The notes beneath the pieces are model-generated. The model saw only the letters and a program-made list of their open reading frames with translations, was not told where the DNA came from and ran no database searches. DNA of 56,205 nucleotides, counting the filler, from Dugesia japonica (Eukaryota): assembly GCA_001938525.1 (NCBI GenBank). It is 5 parts of 5 records of this genome, joined end to end, with 100 filler letters (N's around TTAATTAATTAA, not from the genome) between each part and the next. Parts side by side here need not be neighbours in the genome. Positions count along the whole stretch, not along the records: positions 21,681 to 35,670 come from MQRL01487508.1; 4 more parts are not named here. One strand, written 5' to 3'. The position numbers were made by a program, and so were the translations under genes. Positions 108-35,610 of the stretch are shown here, piece after piece. How positions within the stretch are numbered: the first letter of the stretch is position 1; every line of letters starts with the position of its first letter.

Positions 108-843
108 TTAAGTATAAAATTTTCTTTTTTTTCTCATTTCCTTGGATCTTATTGGATAAACTGCATTTTGCTTCTTTAATCCAATTTGATGTCCTGTCAG
201 TACCGATGATTCAATTCGAACTCTTCTAACCATCAATTTTGCATCAAGTAATTGATATTGAGGTTCATCCCTTACAGATTCCAAACATAATCTTGAAGTT
301 GCAATTTTCATTCGAATGTGAACATTAACATCAGGAATAAGATATTTTGGTTGATCCATGAAATCAAGTTGCAACGATCCACCTAGAGACAATGCTTTAG
401 AGGCTTTAATATACTTTTTTCTATCTTCTTTATCTACATATCCAATTGCTGCAAGACAAAATTTCTTCCTGTCTCCATTATAATTCAAAATAGTTTTGTT
501 CATTACCTTTTGAATATGAGTTTCATTGCTCCCTTCAAGTTTGATTTCATTTAATGCCAGAATAACATCTTTGGACAGAGCATAAAACATAAAGTTTGTG
601 GGTGTTATATCAGATGTTTCAGTCGAATCCTTTTCATTTTTATCAACAATTTTAACCTGGACATACAATAAAGTATTATTCAAATCCAAATATTCTGTTT
701 GCGATCCACTTATAAAAAACATTACATCCTTTCTCGAATCAGAAATTGAATTAATTGGAAACATCTTCAAATGATTCATATTCAATAACAGCTTCAGGTG
801 ATGGGNGGTCGAAAATACACAATTCAGTTTTTCCACAAATCAT
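108..843 (-). pseudogene. Polinton/Maverick (adintovirus-like) major capsid protein, N-terminal about half; frameshifted and 3'-truncated
   Basis: ATG at 843 gives MICGKTELCIFD.PSP. After a frameshift: FFISGSQTEYLDLNNTLLYVQVKIV, ITPTNFMFYAL, LQLDFMDQPKYLIPDVNVHIRM, LLDAKLMVRRV, NAVYPI. These match the F54H12.2-like Polinton double-jelly-roll MCP family. Confidence 0.85.
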
Positions 844-6076: not shown

Positions 6077-7374
6077 TTAGGTGTGTGGATTAATTTTAAA
6101 GGTATTTTCTACAAAGTTTTACAAAAAGAAAAGTCGAGAAAAACAGCTGTATTATAAGAAATGGATACAAATTGTTCATTCTAAATATTGATCATCGCTG
6201 GACACTACTCTCTTTCATCTTTACGGCAAAAAGTAGATTTCACGACGAAAGAAGGAAGCATCTTGTGAGGCTATCCAGGAATCCAACCATTTTTTCGTAT
6301 CCTCATAAGAATGAAAACACTGATCCAAAAGGGCATAGGTCATCGATCTGAAGAGGTGAAAATCCGAAGAAGCAATATCTGGGGAATATGGCGGGTGTGG
6401 TAGTATTTCCCAGTTCAGGTTTTCTAAAGTGTCCTTTACAACTTTCCCGTATGTGGGCCAGGGTTGTCATGCCATAAAATAAAGCTGTCGTGTCTTCCTT
6501 TATAATCTAATGTTTTTACCTGTAACTCTTGACTCAGTTGTTTTTTTTGGTGTTTGTAGACTTTTGATGTGATAGTTTCGTTGGGTTTGAGCAGTTCGTA
6601 ATACACGACCCCAAGCTGATCCCACCAGATAGACAACATTAGTTTGACACCATGGATATTTGGTTTGGCAATCGACTGTGATGGTTCTCCCTGTCTGCAC
6701 CATGATTTTCTGCGCTTCGGGTTGTCAAATCGTACCCATTTTTCGTCACCTGTGAGGATACGATGTTAAACGTTTTTCTTTGATGCCTTTGGAGCAGCAA
6801 TTCAAATATAAATTTTTTCAACGGCTCTGGACTTCAATTTATAGGGTAGCCAATTTCCTTGTTTTTGTATCATTCCAATTGACTTCAGGAGTCTATAACT
6901 TGTGCTTCAACTAACATAATGATTTCGCAAGTTCTTCCTGCATCGCAATTGGGTCTTGATTGACTAAAGCCTCCAATTCTATATCATTCACTTTCGTAGG
7001 TTGTCCCAGACATATATTATTCTAAGTATCAAAATCACTACTTCTAAAGCGGCGATACCAGTATTCGCATGTTAAAATCGATGGGCTATATTTTTCATAG
7101 GCTTCTGACAGCATTTGGTGACTTTCCGCAGCGTTTTATTTCAAATTGAAGCCAAAAAGCAAACATTCCTGCAAATGGCTTTTTGTTGGGACAAATATTG
7201 ACATTTTGTTTGCTAAAAATAAAAATATCTTATGAGTATTTTTTAATGAAAATTATTGATTAGTATAATTCGGTAATTGGAAATCACAAGGGAACACAAA
7301 AATTTTGTCCCATTTCATATACTGCGTATAACATCATCAACTGCATGACCTTTAAAATTAATGCACACACCTAA
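6077..7374 (-). mobile_element. Full-length (about 1.3 kb) mariner, Mos1/mauritiana-like, defective
   Basis: 27-bp TIRs TTAGGTGTGTGGATTAATTTTAAAGGT / ACCTTTAAAATTAATGCACACACCTAA (1 mismatch), flanked by TA on both sides. Confidence 0.95.
6176..7204 (-). pseudogene. Mariner transposase with stops and frameshifts
   Basis: MSIFVPTKSHLQECLLFGFNLK, MLSIWWDQLGVVYYELLKPNETI, HDNPGPH, PPYSPDIASSDFHLFRSM. Confidence 0.95.
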
Positions 7375-13045: not shown

Positions 13046-13145
13046 NNNNNNNNNNNNNNNNNNNNNNNNNNNNNNNNNNNNNNNNNNNNTTAATTAATTA
13101 ANNNNNNNNNNNNNNNNNNNNNNNNNNNNNNNNNNNNNNNNNNNN
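13046..13145. other. Artificial contig linker 44N-TTAATTAATTAA-44N
   Basis: Exactly 100 bp; six-frame stop spacer; identical at four sites. Confidence 0.97.
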
Positions 13146-14061: not shown

Positions 14062-14959
14062 CCCAACCAATTTCAAAATTAATAACCAAAATTAATCATC
14101 GCATATTCTTCCAACAAAAACATTTGTAGGGACACTTGGGGTGTAGGTTGTGTAGAATTTATGTCAACTTGAATCGAAATTATAAATAAATTTTACTAAC
14201 AATTTTTTTACTGGAATATATAATAGCAATATAAAATAATTGAAAACAAAATTAACTGAAATTAATTTTTAACAAATTTTATTTACAAGATAAAATATTT
14301 ACTGTTTTTATTTGATTATTTATCAATTCTCCCAAAATTTATATTCAATTTTTTCTGTAGGATGCCAAGCACGTTTGATTTAAATTCTTCAAATTTCAAT
14401 TTGATTATTTCTTTTATATGTTTTATCGGTGGTTCTCAAGATTTTTTAAATTCAAAATTATTATTCTTATTTTTCTGTCAATAATTATTATTGACCATTC
14501 TTGCCATTTTTTAAATATTTTTTCTATTACTATTATACATATACGCGTGTATATGTATATACATAAACAAGTAAGTAGATTGATCAGCATGACCTCACTA
14601 TTTTGATTGATCAATTTTAAACGATTATGATTAGTCAATTCGGAATGATCTTGAAATTTGATGGACAAAAGTAACAAAAAGATAATATTGTTTAAATATT
14701 CAGTAATTGTTCAGTAATTTAATAAGTGTTGTTAGATATGTGGTAAGGACAATCATTTTTTTAATAATTGTAGCTTATTGCAAAATAACACAAAAATGTT
14801 CAGTGTATTCATGAAGAAAATAATTCAGACGATCTAGCATATAGTAATGACGATATAAAACATGATGAAAGCAGAGATTTCGAAGAGAAAGATATTGGAG
14901 CTTTTACATATGATCAAAACACAAACAGACAAGATCATAATTTAAACGACAGACGCTCC

Positions 14960-15370
14960 ACGGCATACATTTCGTCTGTGGAGTCGTTGAATTAAATGCT
15001 GCAAATGCAGGAAATCGAAATGCTATGATGTTCAAGAAGCCAGATGGTAGATGGTGGAGTTTGATTGAATGTTGTGGAAAGATGATAGAGATGTTATTGG
15101 ATACGGGCGCAGCAGTAACGGTGATGTCAGAAGATAAGTGGAGAATGTGCGGAAATCCGACATATCTCTTAGAGGAGCATTTGGTGCTAAAGCAATAACA
15201 TGTTTACGAGAGTTTAAAGCTTTGGTTAGTTGGAATGGAATGATTAAGAATATCCATATTACGTAGTTAAAGACATATAAATTTGTCGGTGGTATGAATA
15301 TTATTTCAGCTTTTGGATTGAAGCTTTTATAGAGAGTTGCAATGAATTTGATAGATTCGGAAGTCTTAGG
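14960..15370 (+). pseudogene. LTR-retrotransposon aspartic protease remnant
   Basis: EMLLDTGAAVTVMSEDKWRMCGNP..LRGAFG..VGGMNIISAFG. Confidence 0.75.
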
Positions 15371-15380
15371 TTTCACATAT

Positions 15381-15560
15381 GTAATGATAAATTAGTCTAT
15401 CCGATAGAGAATCTTATTTTGAGTAGGGAAAACATAGTTACAAATCATCAAACCTTGTAGATAAAAAGGTGTAAAGATAAAACAAAGTGAAAAAATAGTC
15501 ACTATTAGGAATCGAACCACCACTGATGAGTTGTAAAAACTGATATTACTACTGGACCAA
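15381..15560 (-). mobile_element. tRNA-derived SINE-like repeat, copy 1
   Basis: About 180-bp inverted copy of 17607-17789; A-box-like TGGTCCAGTAG and B-box GGTTCGATTCC on the minus strand. Confidence 0.7.
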
Positions 15561-17606: not shown

Positions 17607-17789
17607 GTTCCAGTGGTAATAACAGTTCTTTTACAACTCATCAGTGGTGGTTCGATTCCTGTTAATGACTTTTTTTTCACTTTGTTTTATCTTTACATCT
17701 TTTTATCTACAAGATTTGATGATTTGTAACTATGTTTTCCCTACTCAAAATAAGATTCTCTATCGGATAGACTAATTTATCATTACATT
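17607..17789 (+). mobile_element. tRNA-derived SINE-like repeat, copy 2
   Basis: CCAGTGGTAA...GGTGGTTCGATTCC head; body matches 15381-15560. Confidence 0.7.
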
Positions 17790-18055
17790 CCAGTTACTCT
17801 TTCCAAAATTCACAATTCCCTCCCTGATTCCCAAAAATGAAGTACATGTTTTTTCTATTTTACTTTTTATGTATAAGGTTTGTTGATTTTTAACTACGTT
17901 TTTCCTACTCAGCTTTAAATTCTCTATCTAATTGATACATTGATGTTCAAATTTGAGTTACTCTTTCCAAATTTCATAATTCCCTCCCGGACTCCCAAAA
18001 ATAAAGTACATGTTTTTTCTTTTTAACTTTTTATCTATAAAATTTGGTGATTTTA
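17720..18055 (+). repeat. Imperfect tandem duplication, unit about 165 bp, continuing the SINE body
   Basis: GTTACTCTTTCCAAA.TTCA.AATTCCCTCCC.GA.TCCCAAAAAT.AAGTACATGTTTTTTC at about 17793 and about 17958. Confidence 0.8.
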
Positions 18056-21086: not shown

Positions 21087-21580
21087 TTAGGTCTAAAAGT
21101 TAATTTTGTGGATTTTCTTTGTTTAAATATTTCATTTTATAAATAATAATTTATCAATTTTTTAAAATAAATTTTAGATAAGTATTATTCAAGCTTTTAA
21201 AAAAATGATTGGTATGATTTGTAAAAGTTTAATTTTATTTTGATTCTCATTTTAGTATTACCATGTATAAACCAACTAAAGAGCACTTGTGGCATTCATT
21301 GTTATTATTATTTAACCTAAAGAAAACAACTGCTGAAAGTTACCGTCTAATTCTGGAAGCATATGCCAATTTGGTTTTATCTCAAGACACATGTGAACGG
21401 TGGTTTAACCGATTCAGGAATGGAGATTTTGACTTGAGTGACAAGGTTCGCCCTGGTCAAGCAAAGAGATTTGAAGATGAAGAATTAGAAGTCATATTAA
21501 CTGATTTAACACACAAACACAACAACAGATAGCTAAGCTATTAAATGTTTCTCAACGTGCCATTTCTAGTCGTCTACATC
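21087..21580 (+). mobile_element. 5' half of a second mauritiana-like mariner, cut by a linker
   Basis: TA + TTAGGT.. TIR; ORF 21263 MYKPTKEHLWHSLLLLFNLKKTTAESYR..TCERWFNRFRNGDFDL. Confidence 0.92.
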
Positions 21581-21680
21581 NNNNNNNNNNNNNNNNNNNN
21601 NNNNNNNNNNNNNNNNNNNNNNNNTTAATTAATTAANNNNNNNNNNNNNNNNNNNNNNNNNNNNNNNNNNNNNNNNNNNN
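21581..21680. other. Artificial contig linker 44N-TTAATTAATTAA-44N
   Basis: Exactly 100 bp, same as the other three. Confidence 0.97.
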
Positions 21681-21724
21681 ATACTACAGAAAAATGGGTA
21701 CTCCCACATTTAGGAAGAGATAAC

Positions 21725-21850
21725 CTGGCGTTAATTAGGAAGAAATTAAGGAAGTATTACAGGAAGATTAAAGGAAGACTTAATTAAGGAAAATTAAAAG
21801 GAAGATTAAAGAAAGACTTAATTAAGGGAAATAAAAGGGAAAAATTAAGA
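21725..21850 (+). repeat. Short purine-rich tandem repeats in the element leader (LTR/5' UTR)
   Basis: GGAAGATTAAAG.AAGACTTAATTAAGG.AAAT repeated twice, plus degenerate copies. Confidence 0.7.
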
Positions 21851-22204
21851 AAGGTGGTTGTGGGAGCTGTAATTACAAGTGTAGAGCAGCATGATATTAA
21901 AATAAGTTTAAAATCAGGAAGAGGAGTGATTGTCTCTTAAGTAAAGACAATTAGAAGTAAATTTTTATTCTAGAAAGTAAAACTACAAAATAGCACAAAA
22001 GCAAACCGAAGCGGATTAAGAAACCAAAAAGCCGGACTCTGACAAAACAGATTGCGACTCGGAAAATAAAAAACCACTTACAAGGTCTAACACATCCGGA
22101 TTATCTACCCCAAATTCAATTCTCAAAGAAACCCAACTTACCCGACCCAGGTCATCAAGGAAGCAAAAGAAATCGTCACTCTATTTGGACCAGGAAGAGA
22201 ACAT

Positions 22205-23700
22205 TTGTTCGCTCAAGAAAAAGAATTCGACAAATCAGCCTCCTTATCCAAAACTAAAACTTTAGAAACCATCAGTTCAAACAGTAGTCCGAATGACAAA
22301 GAAAACCAAACTAACCTAAAAACAATATCCAGTAAAACCCCAGAAGTTAGTAACAGATCAAGTGGAATAAGTTATACATCAGAGGAATCAGAAATCATCG
22401 AACTAATAACTAGTAATCAAGAAAACACCGACTCACTGATAATAAAACCAAGAGACTTAGGAAACGAAACACCCTCAACAATAAATAAAAACCCAAAAAT
22501 AGAATTCAATCTCAAAAAAGACAAAAACATGACCACTAAAACTGAAAACCAACGACCGGAGTGGAAAATAAAATTCGATAGCGAATATTTAAGTGGAATA
22601 CCAGAAAAGTTGGATGAATTTATCCAAAATTACGAAATGTATGCCAAAACCTGTGGCTGGGACGAGGAAGCGAAAAGAAAGCGGTTACCAGTTTACTTAA
22701 CGAGAGTAGCCCAAACCGTGTTTTAGGATCACACCAAGGGCATGGAAGCCATCCCCGAAAAATGGGAAGATATAATAAAGATATTGACGGACAACTTCCA
22801 AAATTTAAAACTGACTGGTCAGGATTTCGAGCAATTTACCAACCGGAAACAACAGCGAGGGGAAACCCCACAAGCTTATATGATGGAACTCAAGAGTCGA
22901 GGCAAACTGGCCTTAGGAGATAAACTAGAAGACATTCAAGTGTTAGCTATATTCTTAAATGAATTACGCGACGAGAACGCAAAGCTAATGGTAAAGTGGA
23001 GTAAGCCAGTGACTCAACAGGACGCCTTGGTCACGTTGCGAATTGTAGCAGATAGACCATCCGAACGAATATTCAAAGTAGAAGGACAGACAGAGGAAAC
23101 TACACCGCGGATATCGGATTTCATACCAAACACACAATCTATGATGAAAACCCTGACCCCAGGGCAGGAACGGAACAGCAGAAATGATAGATCTAACTAC
23201 CCCCGAGGAAATGGCGGAGGATTTAATGCACCTCGTCACAATTGGCAAAATAACCGGAATATACAATGTAATTCCTGTGGAAGGAGGGGACATATAGCCC
23301 GAGATTGTAGGAGTAGAGGCAATAATAATAAAAACAATTGATTTTGTACTTACTGCAAGAAAACCAACCACAATGTAGAAACATGTTTTCTGAAAATCCC
23401 CACTGTCTGTTATAAGTGTAACAGAAGAGGTCATCTGGCAAAAGAATGTCCAAACGGAAACCAAAAAAATTATATCCGAAATCCGAATACAAATCTGGAT
23501 AATCTAATGCAGGAAAATGAGAGATTAAGGCAACGAGTAAACCAAAACANNGGACAAGTCAACTTAGTGCAGCAGAATACTTTTGACGACGTGTACCACA
23601 AAGTCCAACAAGAAAATGATTAGCTCAAGTGGCAAAACCAAGATTTGCAGGTGCAGCAGGATAGACTAGGAAAAAGAAACTGGCTAAACGAACCACACAA
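22205..23700 (+). pseudogene. gag: Gag: capsid domain, three CCHC zinc knuckles and a coiled coil; has stops and a frameshift
   Basis: LDEFIQNYEMYAKTCGWDEE..LPVYL, W..I...L...F, RKQQRGETPQAYMMELK, FLNEL; knuckles CNSCGRRGHIARDC, CTYCKKTNHNVETC, CYKCNRRGHLAKEC. Confidence 0.93.
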
Positions 23701-23974
23701 GAATCAATGTAATATGGTCAGAACACATAGACTTATTTATAATTACCGAAATGGAGGACACTCGGAAATGAATACTGATTACGTCACCAGAATTCGAGTG
23801 GACCAATGAAATCATCCATAAAACAACAAAAACATCAATGACAACCGCCGGAAGAAGACGAGTGATGAATCAGTTACTCCGGTTATATCAGCACCCACAA
23901 GTACATGGAAACGTCAAAGCAAACTGGCAGAAAATAATATCAGATTACATCACTGAGCTCTATAAAGAAACTAA

Positions 23975-26900
23975 GTTAGATGATTACAAATTCGAAATTG
24001 AATATGTATGACATAATAACCCGAAGGTAATTCCGAAACGATTAAAGCTATCACTAAAGGGATTGACAGTACGACACTTGAAAGAAGCCATTAACGAAAT
24101 AAAATGGGCGAATTAGACGGTATCAAATGTATAACGGTAAACCCGTTTCTTGATTTACCACCGTTTACCGATCAACATCAGTGGAATGGAAAGTGGAACA
24201 GGCATAGATTGCAAATAGGTAATATAGGAATCAACATTCTTCCCGATGATAAAAATCTAATTTACTACGGGGCACGACCCCATGAAACAACAGTAATAAA
24301 ATTGATAAATCGTGGTTTGGTATTCAGACCACAGATAGTAATTCAAGAAATAGAAACTGATGAGTTATATCATAATCTCGAAGAAAAATTTTTTAAAGAA
24401 ATCGTTCCCACCACGGCTCAAAACTACTTACGAAAACGATTCGAGAAGGTGAGAGTGATGAACTATCCGGACATGAGACAAAATGAAGCATCACGATTAT
24501 CGCTAGCCCAAATTGATGAGATACTAATAGCCTCCAAGAAACTCCATTATACAATTAGGAGGGAAGTATACCTACAGTTGACTAATCGATTGGTAGAGTT
24601 ATTGGAAGTTATAAAATTGGTCACCGATTTTGAAAGTGATTAGACAGAATGGTTACCAGTACATTATGATTGGGTAATAGCCAACATGGGATTATCAGAT
24701 TACCAAGTATTGTTGTATAACCCAGAAGGAAATAAGAAACTGACACTCGCAGGATTAATGGTGGAAGATCTAGAATTAGCACTGAATCGAGCAGGCCATC
24801 CAAATATAACAGATAAGTTCGTATGTACTTCAAGTGCTATAGTAAATTTTAACGCCAGAAAAAGCCATTTGTACGACTTTGGGGTAAATCGAAATCGTAA
24901 TATTGGATAAACACCCTGGTATCGACTACGACGTATGGGTAACGAAAACTGGAAGATCGGCACTGAAAATCATGGGGAAATGGAATACCTATATAAACAA
25001 GAAGTAGAACCTATCAAAACAAAGATACTTTCCACGGTACTGGGAAAGAAGGACAAACTGACAAAGGAGGAAAGGAAGCAGTTATTGATGACGCGTAACG
25101 ATTTCCTCAAACAAGGATTCGAGAGAAAAGAGGGTAAATGCAAAATGATAAGGATGCGGCAAATGCCGTTAAGGGAAGTAGTAGTGATGCGTAAAGTGGA
25201 GGAAATGATTAACAAAGTACAGGTAGAGAAGGAAATGTTACCCCGAGAAACATATTGATGATATATAACGGGTTGGAAATACCGAAAGAAATTGAGGATC
25301 AATGGCTCATGATTAAACAGTAGTATGCCGAAGAAATATTGGCAACGACCAAAATTCAGGACTATAAACTATATTTGAATATAGTTTAAAATGAACAAGA
25401 AATGACTAAGTACAGCCACCTAAGGCCACAAAGAATAACCATAATGGATCTGGCGGATGCCATTACCGATTAGTGGCAAGAGTACGGATTAAACATGGTA
25501 CCTCTATTCATAAACAGCAAATTGGTCGCGACGGATGACGAGGACAAACACATTCCAATGCCATGCAAAACCCAGAGAAATATGCGAATTAGATGTAGAG
25601 GAGGAGCCGCAGATAGCCCAGTCACCAGAACTTGAGGATCGAATGGAAGAAATAACGGAATTATACGTGTCCGAGGTTCTGACGGGTATTAAGTAACAAG
25701 TAAAAGAAAACCAGAAAAAACAGAATATTGATAACCTACCAATAATTACCACAAAATCAGTTGAATTTCCGGAAGGGACGCCGACAATACGTGATATTCG
25801 GATGAACTACACGAAACCTATAACGGAGGAATCCGCCACGTTTCACGCTATCAAGATCTACTAAGAGTAACACGAGAAACTCGACCAGTAGTGAATATCA
25901 ACGTATATTGGAAAATGATGAATAACCTACGAGATTTGGCAATCTATGGACAACTCAGTTTGTGGGCCAGAGCACAATGGTGGAAAGAGAAAAACCTATA
26001 TGAAGAGGAAGTACAAAATACATCCGCTATATCTGACTATTCTGTCAGAGTGAGATACCTCAGCAAAGAATGAAGTATGAAGAAAGTAGATATGATAACC
26101 CTAGAAGGATTAACTATCCGCCATATCAGAAAACCAATCAAGAAATGGTTATGGCCAAAATCAATCAAGTCATATAAAATGCAGGCGGGAGCAACAATGA
26201 TCATACTAGCCAAAAAAGAAGATCACATCTTCCTGTACGATATTAAACCAGGAGAAATCACGGAAATTAAATTATCCCCGCGGAAAATGACAATAGACTT
26301 TCCGATACCAAAAATGCCGGATACAGATCAGCTTATATTCAACATGATGAGTCTTTATATACAGGAAATATTACCAGTGAAAAACGAAGTGAAAAAAACA
26401 CGTTTGGAGAAAATAAAGTGCAAGTAAACATGGTTAGGAATAATAATTTCAAAACCACGGTCATGGTATCAGACGAGGATGAGGAGGAGGAAGAAATCGT
26501 TGAAGACACAGTCAAACCAAGACTATTACCATTTAAACAAGAATTCGTTACCCCTTTTAGTTCCCCTCAAGCAAAACGTATATCAAAGATAATCTCTGAT
26601 TTCTGGTATTTTCTGGAAAGAATACCTAGGGCACCATTTTGAAAGGCATTAAATTTGTTGATGGATTTGTCGAAATATACCAAAATAGCAAAAGAAGAGC
26701 GCGACAAATGAGAATTAGTGCTCAAGCCGTATATTGGTGCAGTTAAGACAAGGGAGAGGATTTCCAGGTCACTATAGAATATCAGACACCGAGTAAAAAA
26801 CCCAGAAAGGAACCGAAATTGGCTCTAATGCATATACCACATTTCAATAGTACATTAGCTTTGGAATTACAGTAAATTATAGAATCACTGGATATAGCTG

Positions 26901-28285
26901 ACCAACATAAAGGCTATATAATCACCAGCGACCATTTGAGATTCCCTATAAAGCTCGAAGGGAAACAACATTTAATGGACATAGGATTAATACCAGGTAA
27001 AAATATCTTTCTCCAAATACAGAAACCGGAAGACTACGCCCCAGGCCCAGTAAAGTACATGGGAGATGTGCTACAACAATTAGAGGATTTGCACGAGCAA
27101 GAAATCAACAGTGGTAAACTGTTTGAAGAAGTCGACGATAGAACAATGGAGATAAATATCGAGTTATGTGAAGACAGTAAAACATGGAGGAGTCTGGCCC
27201 GGGTAATAATGATAATACTACTGACCCTTGAAAAGAATTTAGAATTATTAAGGGATGACACAGTCATACAACTAATCATGAAATTAAATCAGCTACGAGC
27301 CATTAGCCGTATGCTAGGAGACGTAATGAATGCAATATTATATAAAGTAGTTCGAATGATAACTAATGAAGAAGTCGCCTTAATAATCAGATTTCCGGAT
27401 GAAAGTGGAATTCATTGGCAGATCCAAATGAATGATCAATGGTCCAAATTCCGAAAAAGGATTATAAGATTTATGAATAAACAATGTAATCTTTACGAGG
27501 AGGGGACCGGAACACAACCATTATGACAGGAATACGATATAGTACTCTATTACAATCAGGTAATAGAACCAGACCAAATGAGGTTGCCGGTGAAATATAT
27601 GGGAGTTTGGCCAGGTACTAAATTAAAAATCTACGTAACGGCAAAGGAGGAGGAGAGACGGCGACCACGGGTCTCGGAGGAAAAGTGGAAGCAGGAAGCC
27701 AGAGAAGTAGTGGAATGTTATATAGAAGAGATCCATCTATTAGTACTCGCAAGAGCCAAGCTTCCTAAACAAGAACAAAGTAAACAACGAGTGAAGATGG
27801 TAGCAGCTCTGACCAACACACTAATCAAAAATGAGAATCCAGAAGACAATTTACCAAAATTATTCGAATTGCTAGTGGGTGATAAGTTAATAAAGCCACA
27901 GATCATACGTCGATCCAATATAGTCCTACAACACGATCTGGCAGTAGATCTAAGAAAGCTACGACGATTAATTATGGCCGTCAAGGTATCTCATGTATGG
28001 GTTCCGATTCAGCTTAATAAAACTTTGGTTAAATGGCGGAAAGCGGAGATGGGACAAACGACTCCATTAGCAATCAAATTCAGAATAATCAATCCGGAAG
28101 GAGATAGAATTACGGTTAAGATACCAGTATATAATACGGTAAAGCATCTACGAGATAAATTGCCATTTAAGCCACCATATAAACTCTTGGACGAAAATGG
28201 GGTAGTGGACGAAACCACTTCAATTGGGCTAATGAAGATAGATTTAATCAAATCCAATACTTTATGGATTTTCCCAGAATTATGA
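23975..28285 (+). pseudogene. Accessory region with about 7 divergent ubiquitin-like (beta-grasp) repeats separated by helical spacers
   Basis: Recurrent xDYxhxhxY...hxLxGLThRHh...I...DxxLxxYxhxPxxxhxh pattern, e.g. LPDDKNLIYYGARPHETTVIKL, KEDHIFLYDIKPGEITEIKL, LEGKQHLMDIGLIPGKNIFLQ, LPVKYMGVWPGTKLKIYV. Confidence 0.6.
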
Positions 28286-28848
28286 GGTACCCTTACTCGG
28301 AAAGAAGCAGACCCTTATAAAGCAGCAGATAAAACAAGACCAATAATGGGAGAAACCTTAGGGATGTTAAAAGCATATAAACACCGTACACAACTAGTGG
28401 CTAGACAAATATTAAGACTTACAACAGACCAGTCAGGAAGTACAGAAACCTCCCGAGAAACGAAAGGAACCCCTAAAACAACTCAAGATTGGGAACGTGA
28501 AATATTCGGATCCCCATCAGCAGATGAATTAGCAGAAGATGGGAATGAATTGCAAATCACAAGACATTCACCTCCAACGAGAAAAAGTGGAGAACTACAA
28601 GCATATAGCCAACACGAAGCAAAAAATATGATCCTAGCAAGGTAGATTTAGACGAGGAAGATGCATTAGAAGAACAAACATTATAACCAATATTGAGTAG
28701 GATGGCAAAAGAATTGCCATCATTAGTAATGGATGACTTAATGGATACAAACCACCCTTTAGAAATGGAAAATCCTATGGAGACAGAAGAGGAAGAAGTA
28801 CCACCGAAACCAGTGCACACCAGAGTGGATGCAGAAACGATTACTGAA

Positions 28849-28878
28849 CCTAAAAAAAGAGGAAGGCCAAGAACGAAA
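28849..28878 (+). other. AT-hook/NLS motif in a disordered acidic linker
   Basis: PKKRGRPRTK. Confidence 0.7.
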
Positions 28879-29013
28879 CCTCCAGGAAACCTGGAGGAAG
28901 AGGAAGCATTAAAACAAAAGAGACGAGCAACATCAGTAAATCAACAGACGAAGCGAGAATCCAGGAGATGATGACAGACTCATACTGAAGTGGTAATACG
29001 GCAATTATAGCTA

Positions 29014-29388
29014 ATGCTTTATCCAGAGCTAAAGATTTGGATTGGTAAATTTCAACTATCAGATAGTCTCAGACCACTAGCAAAAGAAATAGAAGCAGCC
29101 ATTAAGAAATTTCACGCTACTAAAGGTACTAGTCATGGCACGAGAGACAACTTGGAAGGAGTAATGGATGATTTTTTACAGGATCAGTCAACGAAAGGAA
29201 GAATAGTAGTATCTATAGCCCATTTGATTAATCAAGCACATCTATCAATGGCCAGAAGCAAGCCGTCAAAAAACTTCATTCTAAAGCAGAACAAAATAGT
29301 GCCGTTGATAAAGCATCATGGGGGATGGAAAAAGTTTATTGAGGTCATATGCCATAAGCCTCAACCATCTCATGAAAATGCAACTTGA
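29014..29388 (+). CDS. Bcl-2-family-like domain (part of the decayed polyprotein)
   Basis: BH3-like LSDSLRPLAKEIE, BH1-like LEGVMDDFLQDQSTKGRIVVSIAH, BH2-like LIKHHGGWKKFIE, with family-like spacing. Confidence 0.72.
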   Translation: MLYPELKIWIGKFQLSDSLRPLAKEIEAAIKKFHATKGTSHGTRDNLEGVMDDFLQDQSTKGRIVVSIAHLINQAHLSMARSKPSKNFILKQNKIVPLIKHHGGWKKFIEVICHKPQPSHENAT

Positions 29389-29466
29389 GTAATCAGGATT
29401 GTAAGAGATCAGTTAAATGAGATTGAGAATGGATGGACACGTGGGCCTCGCCGAAATTCATGGTAG

Positions 29467-31480
29467 GCATTAACAACTACAATACTCTTATTATTCTTAT
29501 TGATGGGCAGAAGTGAAGCCATATTAGCATATGGCTGCGATATGATGCAAGTTGGGAAGGAAGTATTCTCATTAGTAGATACTGAAGAATGTCCGTACGC
29601 GAACCCAGAAAAAATTTCACTCCGAAATAATTCCGTGTACCACCTGTATCAGGAGTCGGATTATTATAAGGCCCAAGTACGCGAATGTATAGTAACAATA
29701 AAGACGTTCATATTCCATTGTGGTTACCACAGTTACACCTCAATAATTGATCCAGGAATGGTAAAACCTCGTACATTTAACGGGACAACAATGTGACGAA
29801 GGATTCACTACAGGTAAAATTACCATCAAACATGGGACTCAAGTTGTCGCCAAAAGGGACATGTAATCGACCAACCAATAGAAGCAGCAGGAAGCATATC
29901 CTAACATATAGACAACTGTGAATATGGTACCTACACTATACGAAGAAAAGTACGGCAGTATGCGGTGGCAATCGAAACTTATACAGTGGAGCTCAAGGAA
30001 TACGAAGCATTCTTTGATGCACAAGATCTGAAAATGAAAGGAAGATCGTATTGTAAAGCAGCGGACGGATCATGTAATACAGGTACATCAACTCTAACAT
30101 ACAAAATAGACCACGAGGACTGCAAGCTAGCTCATCTAAAAGAGGCACTGTCCAATGAATACCAAGGACAGTGGGCTATAGCACCTATTGACCAATCTCC
30201 AAAAAAAGGTAATCTAAAGGATAGAGGAAACGATAAGATAAGGCCCAAAATCATACGATTATCAATGGCACGCAACTCCCACGATGCTAATGTCCTCAGA
30301 ACAGGATGAGACCATCCGCCTAATTAAACGAAATTCTATGTCAAAATGTGGACAAATAGTGTATAAAACAAACTATAAAGGAATATTCGTATCAGAACAT
30401 CGAATGAAAACCCCACAGGCCGCAGTAATGTCACAAGATATCAAATTACATCTATATGCCAATAATAAAATGGACAACTTATTCCACCGGATGCAAAATA
30501 ACATCGGACGAATGTACCACGATCTCATACAAAATGAGTGCAGGTTAAATAAGAAAATACTGAAGACAAAGTTAGCAATGGCGGTTACGAATCCAGATAG
30601 TGTCACCCCACTAATTCCCTTGAAAAAAGGACAATTTGGTCTAGTACTAGGAGAAGTAATGTACCTATATTACTGTAAGGCCGTAGATGCAGAGTTTTCG
30701 TCCAATTCAAAACATTGCTATAATGAAATAGAAATTATCCATAACAATGAAAAACGTTATGTACAACCAATTACTCGAATAATATCACCACTGGGTTATA
30801 GGCCGAATATCATAAACTGCTCCAATGTATTTGGACCACAATACGTAATGACAGACGTGCCATGGATAGGATTTCCACAACGTATGGCAGTTGGAGTTGA
30901 GCCAAGAAAATTCTCAAAGTTATGATTTAATGGCGGTATGCAGTTTTCTCCGATTGATGTAAATAAAGGCGGAATTTACAGCAGGGAAGATCTAGAGAAA
31001 TCTAGGGAATATATGCTGTTTCCAGTCTGAAGAATGCAAATTCTATCAAATATAGTACAATTAACCTGTGGAACAAACATAGACGGGCGCGTAAATTATG
31101 ATGCATTATTGTCACCCGATCATTTCCAGAAAGCCACGGAAAACGTCATGCGGAAAATGTGGGGCTGATTTATACTATTTGGTCAGGCAATGGCAGGATT
31201 GCTGGGAGTGATTTTGATAATTTCAGGAGCACGAGTAGTGATTACCCAATTGTTTGCATGTTTCGACATATACAAAAGAGAAAAGAAAGTGAATTAGAAA
31301 ATGCTAACCGGAATATTCCCATTCTTAGCCAAAACCATGGTGCTTAATAGCCACTCAAAAGAGATTGACAGGGTAAAACGATATATCCGTAAGCTCGGGC
31401 AAAAAAGAGGATCGGACAAGAAGGTTATAATGCAACTTCGATTGTTGTGTGAAGAAGAAAATATTGTATTTTAGCCAACT
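29467..31480 (+). pseudogene. env: Envelope glycoprotein, chuvirus G-like (class III fusogen type), with frameshifts and stops
   Basis: Signal ALTTTILLLFLLMGRSEA, then ILAYGC..FSL..EEC, LYQESDY..VRECIVTIKTFIFHCGYHSY, LYANNKMD, MYHDLIQNECRL, GEVMYLYYCKAV, CYNEI, YVQPITRII, GGIYS; C-terminal TM near 31160-31270. Confidence 0.85.
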
Positions 31481-31974
31481 CAAAAACAAAGGTTTAAGTA
31501 CAAAAGTGAAAGTAGCAGCAGCAGCGATGATGATAGAAAAGAGAGCAGTGGAACGCCACATTTACCCAGTTATAAAACCGCCATGGAATACGATGCGAAG
31601 TTTAAAAGACAACAATATGAAAGAATCAGTAAAATGCAACGACTAAGAAATGCATAAAAATTCGTAGGAAATGAAATTACACCAGCACCAGCACAAATGT
31701 ACTACAACGCCTATCCACAACATGGTTGGCAACCCATGAATCAACAGCCACAACAGGTATGGGCACCAGGTCTCATGTACAACACTCCTTATATGAGTCC
31801 ATCACAAGCTCCTAATATGGCATTATTAACAAAAAATAATCTAACCACCATTGACAGAAGAACTACGGACCAAAATTTGCGTTCTCCGAATAACCAGATC
31901 ACTGAAAACGATAAATTAGAAACCCAAATCGTATGTATGATGATTTATCAGAAAGCGAAACTACTACAAAAAAG

Positions 31975-32215
31975 GATAAAAATTGACAGAAGATTGGTAA
32001 TAGCAATTATCGATACGGCAGCAAGTACGACTTTAGTTCACAAAAGAATATTAGAAGATTATCGACAATTCCGAATAATCATTACTAAAGGAGTTATCAT
32101 CACGGCTTCTGAAGAAAAGATATCACCTGTCGGGGAAGTAATATGTGCAATAGAAAGTGACGGAATCCGTCTATGGCATAAAGTGCCTACTGGGATTAGA
32201 TCTCTTACCACGTCT
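31975..32215 (+). pseudogene. Aspartic protease domain 1 (DTA variant)
   Basis: IKIDRRLVIAIIDTAASTTLV..IITASEEKISPVGEV..CLLGLDLL (last motif after a frameshift). Confidence 0.8.
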
Positions 32216-32559
32216 ATGCTCAGAGGGAATACTAGATCTGAGGAAACTAACAATACGAGAAATTCACGATCAGGAATACACACCACAAGGTTACTAAAAG
32301 ACCAGGATAATAATTGCACGGAAACGACCAACAAAATGGAATCAAACAACCCCTAACCAACGGCCTCAACTCTCGTCATGCAGGGGTGAACAATATAATT
32401 CGAATCAAGGTCGTCGAAAAACCACCAATACCTCCATTATGATAAGAGACTATTGAATACGGTTTCAGGAACGGGAACCAAGGTGGAAAGAGAAAAAACC
32501 ACAGAATACAAATTATAACCCTTTGGATATGGTGTACGCAGGTCTCGGCGGTGGATCTG

Positions 32560-32840
32560 TGTTAACAATTATAGTTAAAATCAACGGTAGACCTACAACT
32601 GCTTTATTGGATACAGGAGCAACAATCTCGTTGCTATCAATAGAAGAAATCCCGATAACAGAATATAAAACATACTACTCACCAATACCACAGCAGATGT
32701 GGCAAACCGGAGTAGACTTAAAATTTTTGGAGAACTAACATGTGAAGTAGAATATTTGGATAACAAAATTAAGCACAACATGATAATAGTAGAGATGGCT
32801 GGACAGTGCATTTTGGCACGGACATTCTCCCAATTCTGAT
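32560..32840 (+). pseudogene. Aspartic protease domain 2 (canonical DTG)
   Basis: VKINGRPTTALLDTGATISLL..VANRSRLKIFGEL..CI(L)GTDIL with frameshifts. Confidence 0.88.
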
Positions 32841-32939
32841 GAAAAATGGCATATTGAACTTCTCAACGTTACGGTTACAATCTCTGGAGGGATATACTCA
32901 CGTTAAAGATCACGAAGTATTTACAACAGAGGAAATATT

Positions 32940-33800
32940 GGTATGTGTACAGCTACAATGCATACCATTCCGTTAACAGACGAAACCCCGGTTAAACAAA
33001 AACAATATGCAATGACTGTGGAAAAGAAGGAATTTGCAAATAAGGAAACAGCTAATTTAGTGAAAATCGGTGTAATAGAACCCAGCTGCTTGCCATGGCA
33101 GTCCCCAGTGGTATTAGTGGATAAGAAAGATGGGACACAACGATTCTGCATTGATTACCGAAGATTAAATGCACAAACTAAGAAGGACATATATACGTTA
33201 CCAGACATCAATGAATTGCTACAATCATTGTGTAATGCCAAAATATTCACTACATTGGACCTGCGAAGTGGGTATTGGCAGGTACAGATTAAACCAGAAG
33301 ATAGGGAGAAAACAGCTTTTTCTACAGGCAAAGATTTATATCAGTTCATCCGCATGCCATTTGGACTCACTAATGCACCTGCCTCATTCCAGAGGATGAT
33401 GAATTATGTAACACATGGTATCTCGCAATGTATGGCATACATTGACGACTTGCTGATATATTCACTAACGTTTGAAGGACATCTCAATGATTTACATAGT
33501 GTGTTCATTCGATTACGAAAATGGAATTTGAAAGTGTAACTTACCAAATGTGAAGAATAAAGTAACGTATTTTGGTCACTTAATATCCGATAAAGGAAAG
33601 GAGCCAGATCCGAGAAACACCGAGAAAATCAGAAATCTAGCACCTCCTAATTGTGTGCTCAAAATACAAAGGTTTTTAGCCTCGCAAATTACAACCGCAA
33701 ATTTATCAAATACTTCGCAAAGATTGCAAAACATATACAAGAATTGGTCAAACAGGATACCGCATGTATATGGGGACCGGAGCAACAACAAGCATTTGAA
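32940..33800 (+). pseudogene. pol: Reverse transcriptase, Ty3/Gypsy type
   Basis: HTIPL, PWQSPVVLVDKKDGTQRFCIDYRRLN, LDLRSGYWQ, KTAF, RMPFGLTNAPASFQRMM, YIDD. Confidence 0.97.
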
Positions 33801-33819
33801 ACGTTGCGGGACAAATTAT

Positions 33820-34230
33820 TAACTGCACCAATTCTGGTGCATCCAGATTACAAAAAGCCATTTATATTAGCCACTGACGCTAGTGGATATGCGATGGGTG
33901 CTGTATTAAGTCAACTGAATGAACAAGGTAGAGAAAGGGTAATAGTATATTTTAGCATATTTTAGCAAGAAAAAGAGCAGAGTTAAATTACAGCACTACA
34001 GAGCGAGAAATAATGGCTATTATTAAAGCCACTAAACATTTTCGATCACTCATACATGGTCACAAAGGTGTTAATCTATACGGATCACTTACCAATCACT
34101 TTTATGGCTCAGAAACCATTACGATGGAATAGAATGGCAAAATGGCAATTAGCAATGCAGGATTATTGCCCTCTATTAAATTTTAAAACGGGTAAAGCCA
34201 ACATAAATGCCGATTGTCTGTCGAGAATCG
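33820..34230 (+). pseudogene. pol: RNase H
   Basis: APILVHPD..PFILATDASGYAMGAVLSQ, NYSTTEREIMAI, IYTDHLPI, GKANINADCLSR. Confidence 0.95.
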
Positions 34231-34529
34231 GTGGACCAGAAGCTACAGAAAGTACCCCGGAAGATACGGAAACGTTTACAATACGTGAATTATTAGAGAA
34301 AAAAGTGGGGATGGTATACTTCATTTCAGCCGAGGATCAAAATTTTGATGGGCTGAAACAAGCATAGGCTGACGATGAGAAAATCAAGATCATCCCGAAA
34401 TATATTGAAAGTTACAATTTAGAGAAGTTAGACTGCGAAGCCAAAATGAAAGAGCACGTAAAGAAAAACGGCGGTAGTTATGCATTTATCAAAGGATGGT
34501 TGACTGCTCAGGACGGAGAAAATACTGTA

Positions 34530-35610
34530 TTAGTCATTCTTAAAGCAAGACGGGACAAATTACTCGAACAATATCACAATGGAGTACTAGGAGGACACAT
34601 GTCCCATAAGAAAACCGAGTCAAATTTAAGACAGAAATACTACTGACCATACATGACGGAATCAGTAAAGGAATGGATCGCTAAATGTCTGGTATGTGCT
34701 GCCAGAAGAGGAACAGGCAAACGAGTAAAAGCATTATTAAAACCAATTGCCGTCCCCGCAGCACCTATGGAAATAATCGCCATGGACGTAGTTGGACCGC
34801 TATCACCAACGCTGAGCGGGAATATATATATATATATACTAACAATCATGGATTACTTGTCAAAATTTCCAGAGGCATTCACTATGAAAAATCAAAAGGC
34901 AACCACAATAGCAGATATTCTAGTACGAAAATTTTTCAGCAGATATGGCACACTCATGAAAGTATTGAGCTATCAAGGAAAAAACTTTATGAGCAACATA
35001 CTGGCACAGATATCAAGCTTTCTCTGGATACATCAATTATGGACATCGCCTTATCATCCTCAAACAGACGGACTAACGGAACGATTTAATAAAACATTGA
35101 TCAATATGCTGTCTAGTTATGCACAGAAAGAACAGAATAATTGGGANNNNNNNNNNCAGCTATGTCTATTTGCATATCGAATAAATGTGCACCCAGCTAC
35201 AAAATACACTCCATTCGGTCTTATGTATGGCAGAAAGTGTAACATGCCAATTGATTTAGAGTTTTAGCCACCCATAACTCAATACCAAGACGAAACGGAT
35301 TTCGCTGAAAATTTGAAAGAAACTAAGCAGAAAATATGGAAACAGGCCAAGGAGAATGTAGGATTTTACCTAGAAAGCTATAAGGATTTGCACGATAAAA
35401 CTGCAATGCAACATTCATTTGAAAATGAAGACATGGTATTGATCAATTTTTTGACACTCATAGATATTTGTGTTGGCACTAGTTTGAAATAAAAAAGGCC
35501 ATGACAAAGGCCCTACGAAGTAATTGAGGTAACCGAAACCAATCTCAAAGTTCGGAAAAAAGGAAATCTCTTAGTGAAACCTAAAATATACCACACCAAC
35601 TTATGTAAAA
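34530..35610 (+). pseudogene. pol: Integrase (HHCC, DDE core with second D mutated to Y, GPY module)
   Basis: YHNGVLGGH..CLVC, MDVVGPL, DYLSKF, SYQGKNF, PYHPQTDGLTERFN, GPYEVIEV. Confidence 0.96.

Follow-up and report, generated by a model that had tools for sequence, protein, structure and literature searches.

A putative array of about seven ubiquitin-like units in a decayed Burro-like retrotransposon of the planarian Dugesia japonica

Introduction

Burro (GYPSM1) comprises giant Ty3/gypsy elements of planarians whose domains follow the order gag, accessory domains, a Ubi2/SUMO-like motif, BCL-2, env, protease (PR), a dUTPase-like domain, reverse transcriptase (RT), RNase H (RH) and integrase (IN); the in-frame env between gag and pol was called the first such case, and one Ubi2/SUMO-like motif before BCL-2 has already been reported (PMC6431247). 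The accessory domains that neighbor this ubiquitin-like (UBL) motif concern apoptosis and ubiquitination (PMC6431247). Burro1 is reported to guard planarian stem cells against apoptosis through an IAP-like region (PMC13465017, citing Lee et al. 2026) and is under PIWI control (PMC8532177). Here, we describe a 56,205-nt stretch of Dugesia japonica DNA (hereafter the window, along whose whole length all positions are counted), in which positions 21,681–35,670, corresponding to MQRL01487508.1, hold a decayed Ty3/gypsy element (22.1–35.6 kb, plus strand) with an array of about seven putative UBL units between gag and env.

According to Pfam searches and frame reading, the element is ordered as gag, the array, a Bcl-2-like domain, a Monjiviricetes-type env, protease, RT, RNase H and integrase. 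It shares with Burro the CCHC gag, a mononegavirus-like env between gag and pol, the PR-RT-RH-IN order, a very high copy number, and a BCL2-like domain directly before env, which is weak in the window copy (Pfam E 0.072). Where one Ubi2/SUMO-like motif is reported for Burro, this element has about seven UBL-like units, separated by helical spacers that are themselves repeated. Unlike in Burro, no BIR, ankyrin or MATH domain was found at E ≤ 1 (Pfam, three forward frames, 21682–35670), and no Pfam match was obtained for a dUTPase-like segment between protease and RT; this interval spans 126 amino acids (aa), compared with 271 in the intact relative P0009 described below, and is thus ~145 aa shorter. 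Burro forms a single open reading frame (ORF) of ~4,900–5,100 aa and, with long flanking terminal repeats (LTRs), exceeds 30 kb in total; the present element is a decayed span of at least ~4,350 codons up to a gap and is seen only between N gaps. On the basis of its predicted domain layout, we class the element as Burro-like rather than as Burro1.

Retrotransposons with glycoproteins of this kind are also found outside Ty3/gypsy, as BEL/Pao, to which Anakin belongs, is a different superfamily. Anakin elements, with their chuvirus glycoprotein, likewise carry a glycoprotein of negative-strand RNA virus type, and the accessible part of their description shows no UBL or Bcl-2 block (PMC12440569). 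A single UBL at the site between gag and BCL-2 is known, and what appears to be new is the roughly seven-fold expansion of a Burro-type UBL module. The literature searched did not mention a UBL array in elements of this type, and earlier work may contain domain maps of Burro2-4 in which it already figures.

The Repeated Units and Their Spacers

An earlier note on this DNA had proposed about seven divergent UBL domains after gag, legible through stops and frameshifts, and all seven stretches are indeed present on three-frame reading downstream of the CCHC gag. Unit limits were set by eye, following that note. On the plus strand, unit 1 (23973–24322; interrupted by a stop and by a frameshift near 24.1 kb, and with ~27 residues inserted with respect to unit 4) is followed by helical spacer 1 (24323–24688), unit 2 (24689–24937; one stop), the broken helical spacer 2 (24938–25347), unit 3 (25348–25606; stops and a frameshift near 25.55 kb), the broken spacer 3 (25607–26025), unit 4 (26026–26289; one stop), the broken spacer 4 (26290–26755), unit 5 (26756–27028; one stop), helical spacer 5 (27029–27367), the weakly linked unit 6 (27368–27643; one stop), helical spacer 6 (27644–28060) and unit 7 (28061–28285). 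The true repeat is ~680 nt, or ~225 aa, and consists of a beta-rich unit of 80–90 aa and a spacer of 110–150 aa that is mostly helical by a crude measure of periodicity. The spacers are thus repeated as well, and the array stands before the Bcl-2-like domain and env, both of which were absent from the earlier note.

The relatedness of the units was examined by pairwise alignment of all 21 unit pairs, with 2,000 shuffles each. Four pairs were strong (u1-u4, z 8.7; u3-u4, 5.7; u2-u5, 5.3; u1-u3, 4.2), their scores being reached by at most 3 of the 2,000 shuffles, and three were weak (u1-u2; u2-u4, z 3.4; u5-u6, z 3.2), reached by 21–25 shuffles; unit 7 aligned with none of the other six in this test. 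A leave-one-out profile search over all six frames of the window (~2,100–2,400 places) gave rank 1 to unit 4 and to the first half of unit 1, rank 11 to units 3 and 5, 71 to unit 2, 126 to the second half of unit 1, 368 to unit 6 and 534 to unit 7, so that units 2, 6 and 7 were not convincingly recovered.

Two short motifs, both chosen after inspection of the sequence, add to the regularity of the series. The start motif, D[YF]x-hydrophobic-x-hydrophobic, which the earlier note had assigned to the first five units, occurs five times in the 4,232 codons of the element's coding frames, in every case at the start of one of units 1–5 (23982, 24698, 25360, 26035 and 26759). The spacer motif, [YFH]xxE[IV], occurs ten times in the coding frames of the element, nine of them within the array, and lies ~20–25 codons after each of units 1–6 without exception (24389, 24992, 25664, 26356, 27092 and 27719), thereby linking units 5 and 6 into the series. 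Spacers 1, 2 and 4 align weakly with one another (s1-s4, z 3.9; s2-s4, z 3.7), these being the two pairs of 28 above z 3. Taken together, the alignments indicate that units 1–5 are related to each other, with unit 6 weakly linked. The expectation that the units would align mutually thus held for the first five, weakly for the sixth, and failed for the seventh.

At the DNA level, no repeat in register was found in the array, as the earlier note had stated, and duplication to about seven copies would be old enough that similarity in the DNA is gone. As a separate observation, a single contig in either of two DNA runs passes over 683 nt (24618–25302), about one repeat period; its short side has only 21 letters, so that the skip may reflect chance.

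When the coding frames were read with an X at each break, the array contained 13 X in 1,601 codons, while gag had 4 in its 570 codons and env/protease had 6 in 704. Because these rates are similar, the array is best regarded as coding sequence that has decayed like the rest of the element, and it is most simply part of one polyprotein with gag and the downstream domains. The copy in the window is dead, and since its array is as decayed as its gag, env and pol, selection on the array cannot be read from it.

Relationship to Ubiquitin-Like Domains

Indirect evidence for the identity of the units comes from intact relatives. An env-region search among proteins of 2,393–7,616 aa yielded, from 694 candidates, two intact polyproteins: P0008 (2,713 aa) and P0009 (4,029 aa, a cluster of 20 members). 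The same kind of search among shorter proteins returned one 173-aa fragment from 5,538 candidates, and env locus searches in viral and metagenome contigs gave no confirmed case among 14, 422 and 143 matches. P0008 and P0009 share with the window element the env, helical-plus-UBL modules between gag and env, and at least two protease segments, and P0008 also has a Bcl-2-like domain. They differ in carrying two modules (P0008) or one (P0009), in placing the helical part before the UBL, and in their long acidic linkers; in addition, P0009 lacks a Bcl-2 match.

In both relatives, a small domain of ~78 aa comes after the helical domain of each module. The second UBL of P0008 had nine PDB matches at E ≤ 10, eight of them UBL chains (best FAT10, E 0.044), and a joint P0008 and P0009 UBL profile had fifteen, of which eleven were UBL chains (best Get5/MDY2, E 0.047; ubiquilin was also matched). 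The P0009 module matched Rad60-SLD (E 0.016) and ubiquitin (E 0.052) in Pfam. Across 15 distinct sequences of the P0009 cluster, which fall mostly into two groups and are non-independent, the module differs at 1.3–1.6 per 100 aa, versus 3.0–5.6 in the linkers.

A profile built from the seven units, with unit 1 entered without its insertion, was searched against the whole of P0008 and P0009, and placed the three relative UBLs at ranks 1, 3 and 9 of 180 places, in register. None of 200 shuffles, and none of 60 sets of real spacer or linker segments, reached this rank sum. Units 1–5 alone gave ranks 2, 3 and 6, units 1–4 alone gave 4, 5 and 6, and five of the seven drop-one sets kept all three UBLs at rank 10 or better. 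End-to-end alignment of 28 unit-template pairs agreed in part, with unit 3 reaching rank 1 and unit 5 rank 3 of 255 against the second UBL of P0008, and unit 4 rank 4 of 255 against the UBL of P0009.

Several results weigh against reading the units as ubiquitin-like. No unit matches a ubiquitin family or structure in Pfam, PDB single-sequence or PDB profile searches, and none of eight unit pieces matches PF00240 or PF11976 in Pfam. Ubiquitin itself scores none of the seven units above background in end-to-end alignment, whereas two relative UBLs out of the three do stand out in the same alignment (ranks 5 and 2 of 255), and even the relatives' own UBL matches lie below curated thresholds. The profile result is sensitive to composition: ranks fall to 10, 11 and 22 without unit 7, to 2, 8 and 89 without unit 1, and to 4, 22 and 66 with units 5–7 alone. 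Reversed units still rank the relative UBLs 1, 5 and 68, and as two of these are high, part of the signal may stem from strand/helix pattern and not from ancestry. The reverse search, with the relatives' profiles against the window, found no unit and no spacer, hhalign probabilities did not exceed 14.5%, and homology between the window spacers and the helical domains of the relatives is not clear. Because several such tests preceded the successful one, we treat the profile result as moderate evidence, not proof.

Homology of the units to the relatives' UBL domains accordingly carries moderate support from sequence comparison. A beta-grasp fold is proposed on indirect grounds, with considerable confidence for units 1–5 and with somewhat better than even confidence for units 6 and 7. 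The ubiquitin-like identity put forward in the earlier note is therefore sustained where the unit profile finds the relatives' UBLs and where the position fits the Ubi2/SUMO-like motif of Burro, but not by any direct match of a unit to a ubiquitin family. Its SUMO/UBX-like label for units 6 and 7 likewise finds low-score Atlas leads for spacer 6 plus unit 7 (Rad60-SLD, 0.80; ubiquitin/Rad60-SLD, 0.78; CLU_N, 0.78) and no direct family match; unit 7 is thus SUMO/UBL-like by lead only.

Several candidates from these searches were set aside. A hidden Markov model (HMM) of ubiquitin, based on 62 natural viral ubiquitins (120 loci), failed to rank the units; as it failed on the positive controls too, the test had no power. 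Its apparent rank-1 match close to unit 1 lay out of frame and was discarded. Staphylokinase, the top match of a first unit profile, was not significant (E 0.53). A phmmer search with units 5–7 and their spacers against 1.84 billion representatives gave a sole match (P0007, E 1.6e-4), a lipoprotein-like tandem repeat that was judged spurious, and a word-index search with a 252-aa ORF found no relatives among 2,964 candidates. A ubiquitin-like RGG end at unit 3 proved to sit in a non-coding frame after the frameshift.

No di-glycine occurs in any coding frame of the array, in line with the earlier remark that a C-terminal GG is lacking, and for this reason the units are probably non-conjugated, as had been suggested. 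The second UBL of P0008 does end in di-glycine. Integral type II UBLs (Get5/MDY2 and ubiquilins) and tandem UBLs (FAT10 and ISG15) are the chain types matched by the relatives, not by the window units; FAT10 and ISG15 carry their UBLs head to tail, whereas the window units stand 110–150 aa of helical spacer apart and without di-glycine.

Further features of the relatives are recorded here in their own right. The di-glycine that closes the second UBL of P0008 (residues 845–922) lies within the polyprotein and may be a site for cleavage of the deubiquitinase type. A strongly amphipathic helical domain precedes each UBL (P0008 residues 495–573 and 765–844; P0009 residues 591–671); we take it to resemble the TFIIS N-terminal (Med26-type) domain, and this identity was not borne out by any Pfam family, solved-structure or Atlas match. 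P0008 has two protease segments and terminates in ankyrin repeats, and its ORF lacks RT. P0009 has three protease segments, the third lying after integrase (residues 3320–4029) together with ~500 aa that have no Pfam match and a hydrophobic end.

Possible Roles of the Array

On balance, we favor the interpretation that the array is an expanded UBL module of a Burro-like polyprotein, forming a non-conjugated UBL scaffold directed toward the host. The UBL-plus-helical module (~225 aa) would have been duplicated to about seven copies in the lineage of the element, and the element's own protease may release the array, alone or with the Bcl-2-like domain. UBLs of Get5 and ubiquilin type are non-conjugated and serve in receptor binding, and because the relatives' nearest structural matches are of that type, the released array could act as a multivalent scaffold on helical adaptors that binds host UBL receptors. 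Candidate receptors include proteasome subunits, SGTA/BAG6, p97 cofactors and SUMO-binding motifs. Such binding, in effect that of a decoy or adaptor, might protect the element's proteins or redirect degradation, with the Bcl-2 mimic meanwhile keeping the host cell from dying. This mechanism as a whole, which is drawn by analogy, seems to us to fall a little short of an even chance. A host-directed role would fit the adjacent Bcl-2-like domain and the protection of stem cells reported for Burro1 (PMC13465017).

The units may instead be beta-grasp domains that serve the element's own particle or polyprotein as folding aids, cleavage-site spacers or scaffolds for binding gag or RNA, much as the Ubl domains of coronavirus nsp3 offer a model for an internal role. 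The units do follow immediately on gag without leaving its reading line, and each comes with a helical partner. They have also diverged too far to score against ubiquitin, something not necessarily to be expected of a close mimic of a host ligand. We nevertheless consider an internal role unlikely, as a unit number of one in P0009, two in P0008 and about seven in the window would be odd for a fixed structural part, and the accessory domains next to it in Burro are connected with apoptosis and ubiquitination (PMC6431247). A stronger form of the host-directed proposal, namely an accordion of seven differently specialized ubiquitin/SUMO-like mimics on helical adaptors that titrates several host UBL-binding systems (proteasome delivery, p97 and SUMO-dependent silencing) while a Bcl-2 mimic keeps cells alive, strikes us as doubtful, and marginally more so than an internal role.

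The units may also be of mixed origin, with units 1–5, perhaps 6, forming a separate duplicated alpha/beta family that is maybe not ubiquitin-like, and unit 7, perhaps with unit 6, being the ancestral UBL/SUMO-like domain of Burro. Unit 7 has no pairwise link to the others and ranks 534 in the leave-one-out search, the stretch containing it is the sole source of Atlas UBL leads, and its removal weakens the profile test most. That units 1–4 or 1–5 suffice to rank the relative UBLs high, that unit 3 aligns end to end with a P0008 UBL at the first rank, and that the regular spacing continues through unit 7 all make such a split rather improbable, the more so than either possibility in the preceding paragraph. 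Least probable of all, in our estimate, is that the likeness to ubiquitin has been read into decayed sequence, with the array consisting of a repeat of some other kind or of a row of domains without relation to one another: every direct library search was blank and several tests were tried before one worked, but the shuffle and real-segment controls of the profile test, the regularity of the motifs, and a position matching that in Burro and both relatives speak against it. The expanded, host-directed UBL module of a Burro-like polyprotein hence remains our preferred explanation.

The Element as a Whole, Its Abundance and Expression

The window is AT-rich (GC mostly 20–30%) with many transposon fragments, from which the block at 22–35 kb stands apart with ~38–40% GC and a strong A skew. 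This block is limited by N gaps at 21581–21680 and 35671–35770, so that LTRs and total length fall outside; the coding span from the first ATG (22529) to the gap is at least ~4,350 codons, with similar decay throughout. All of its features lie on the plus strand. The stop-broken gag (22091–23800) contains CCHC zinc knuckles (Pfam zf-CCHC, E 2.1e-9, in two stretches; three knuckle patterns by eye) and matches the gag of P0008 at E 1e-6 (tblastn). It is followed by 4.8 kb without a Pfam match and then by the weak Bcl-2 match. A low-complexity linker after the array (28286–29010) includes, near 28.87 kb, an RGRP motif that we presume to be AT-hook-like; a short RGRP motif also lies upstream of the Bcl-2-like domain in P0008, with a local z of only 1.8. 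The Bcl-2-like domain (29011–29385), whose Pfam match is below cut-off, aligns at z 12 to a P0008 stretch that itself matches Bcl-2 at E 0.0015, and had no match in a PDB sequence search.

Between gag and pol, the broken env (29467–31470) encodes a Monjiviricetes-type fusion glycoprotein (PF24664, E 1.4e-57 and 2e-21) that is 38–41% identical to those of P0008 and P0009. Two tandem aspartic-protease-like segments precede RT (31940–32840), the first 32–34% identical to the relatives' proteases and the second matching Pfam RVP (E 2.8e-7). The broken RT, RNase H and integrase region follows in gypsy order (32907–35600; Pfam RVT_1, RT_RNaseH, Integrase_H2C2 and rve), with 50% (RT) and 52% (integrase) identity to P0009.

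When contigs of two DNA runs were placed on the element at 85% likeness, 17,957 and 18,461 contigs were found to lie on it, most at 85–95% identity, a summed depth that is not equivalent to copy number. All 30 bins were covered, and because these include the bins of the array, the array is a regular part of a high-copy family and not a one-off insertion. In two oligo-dT RNA runs, of which about a quarter each was used, 68 and 8 reads fell on the element, almost all of them partial; none fell at 24,483–28,218, a result that neither points to expression in this interval nor demonstrates silence.

Other Features of the Window

Elsewhere in the window, a 243-codon ORF (108–839, minus strand) without a Pfam match resembles a Maverick/Polinton capsid-type protein. 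Mariner transposase fragments lie at 6221–6765 (minus strand) and 21233–21580 (plus strand; Transposase_1, E 2.2e-24, and HTH_48, E 3.1e-17, for the transposase fragments), and other gypsy-type fragments comprise a protease at 14941–15198 (Pfam E 3.4e-4) and the start of an RT at 47216–47506 (tblastn to P0009, E 3e-9). A 160-nt inverted repeat (15379–15538 and 17629–17788; 96% complementary, 2.1 kb apart), which overlaps a 164-nt tandem repeat at 17683–18054, is probably a non-autonomous DNA transposon. The gaps at 13046–13145, 21581–21680, 35671–35770 and 44926–45025 each consist of a 12-nt AT spacer flanked on either side by 44 N, and are joining artefacts, not biology.

Concluding Remarks

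Since a single UBL at the same position has already been described in Burro, the presence of UBL-like sequence here is less of a surprise than it might have been. The array supplies discrete domains of 80–90 aa for folding and partner tests, and if the seven-mimic proposal were true, it would constitute a transposon-encoded, multi-target counter-defence protein. Few transposons carry accessory genes directed at apoptosis and ubiquitination in the host, and Burro-type elements belong to these few. That one member lacks BIR but has enlarged its UBL module to about seven copies, instead of one or two, suggests that lineages act on the same host pathways with different tools, which vary in copy number.

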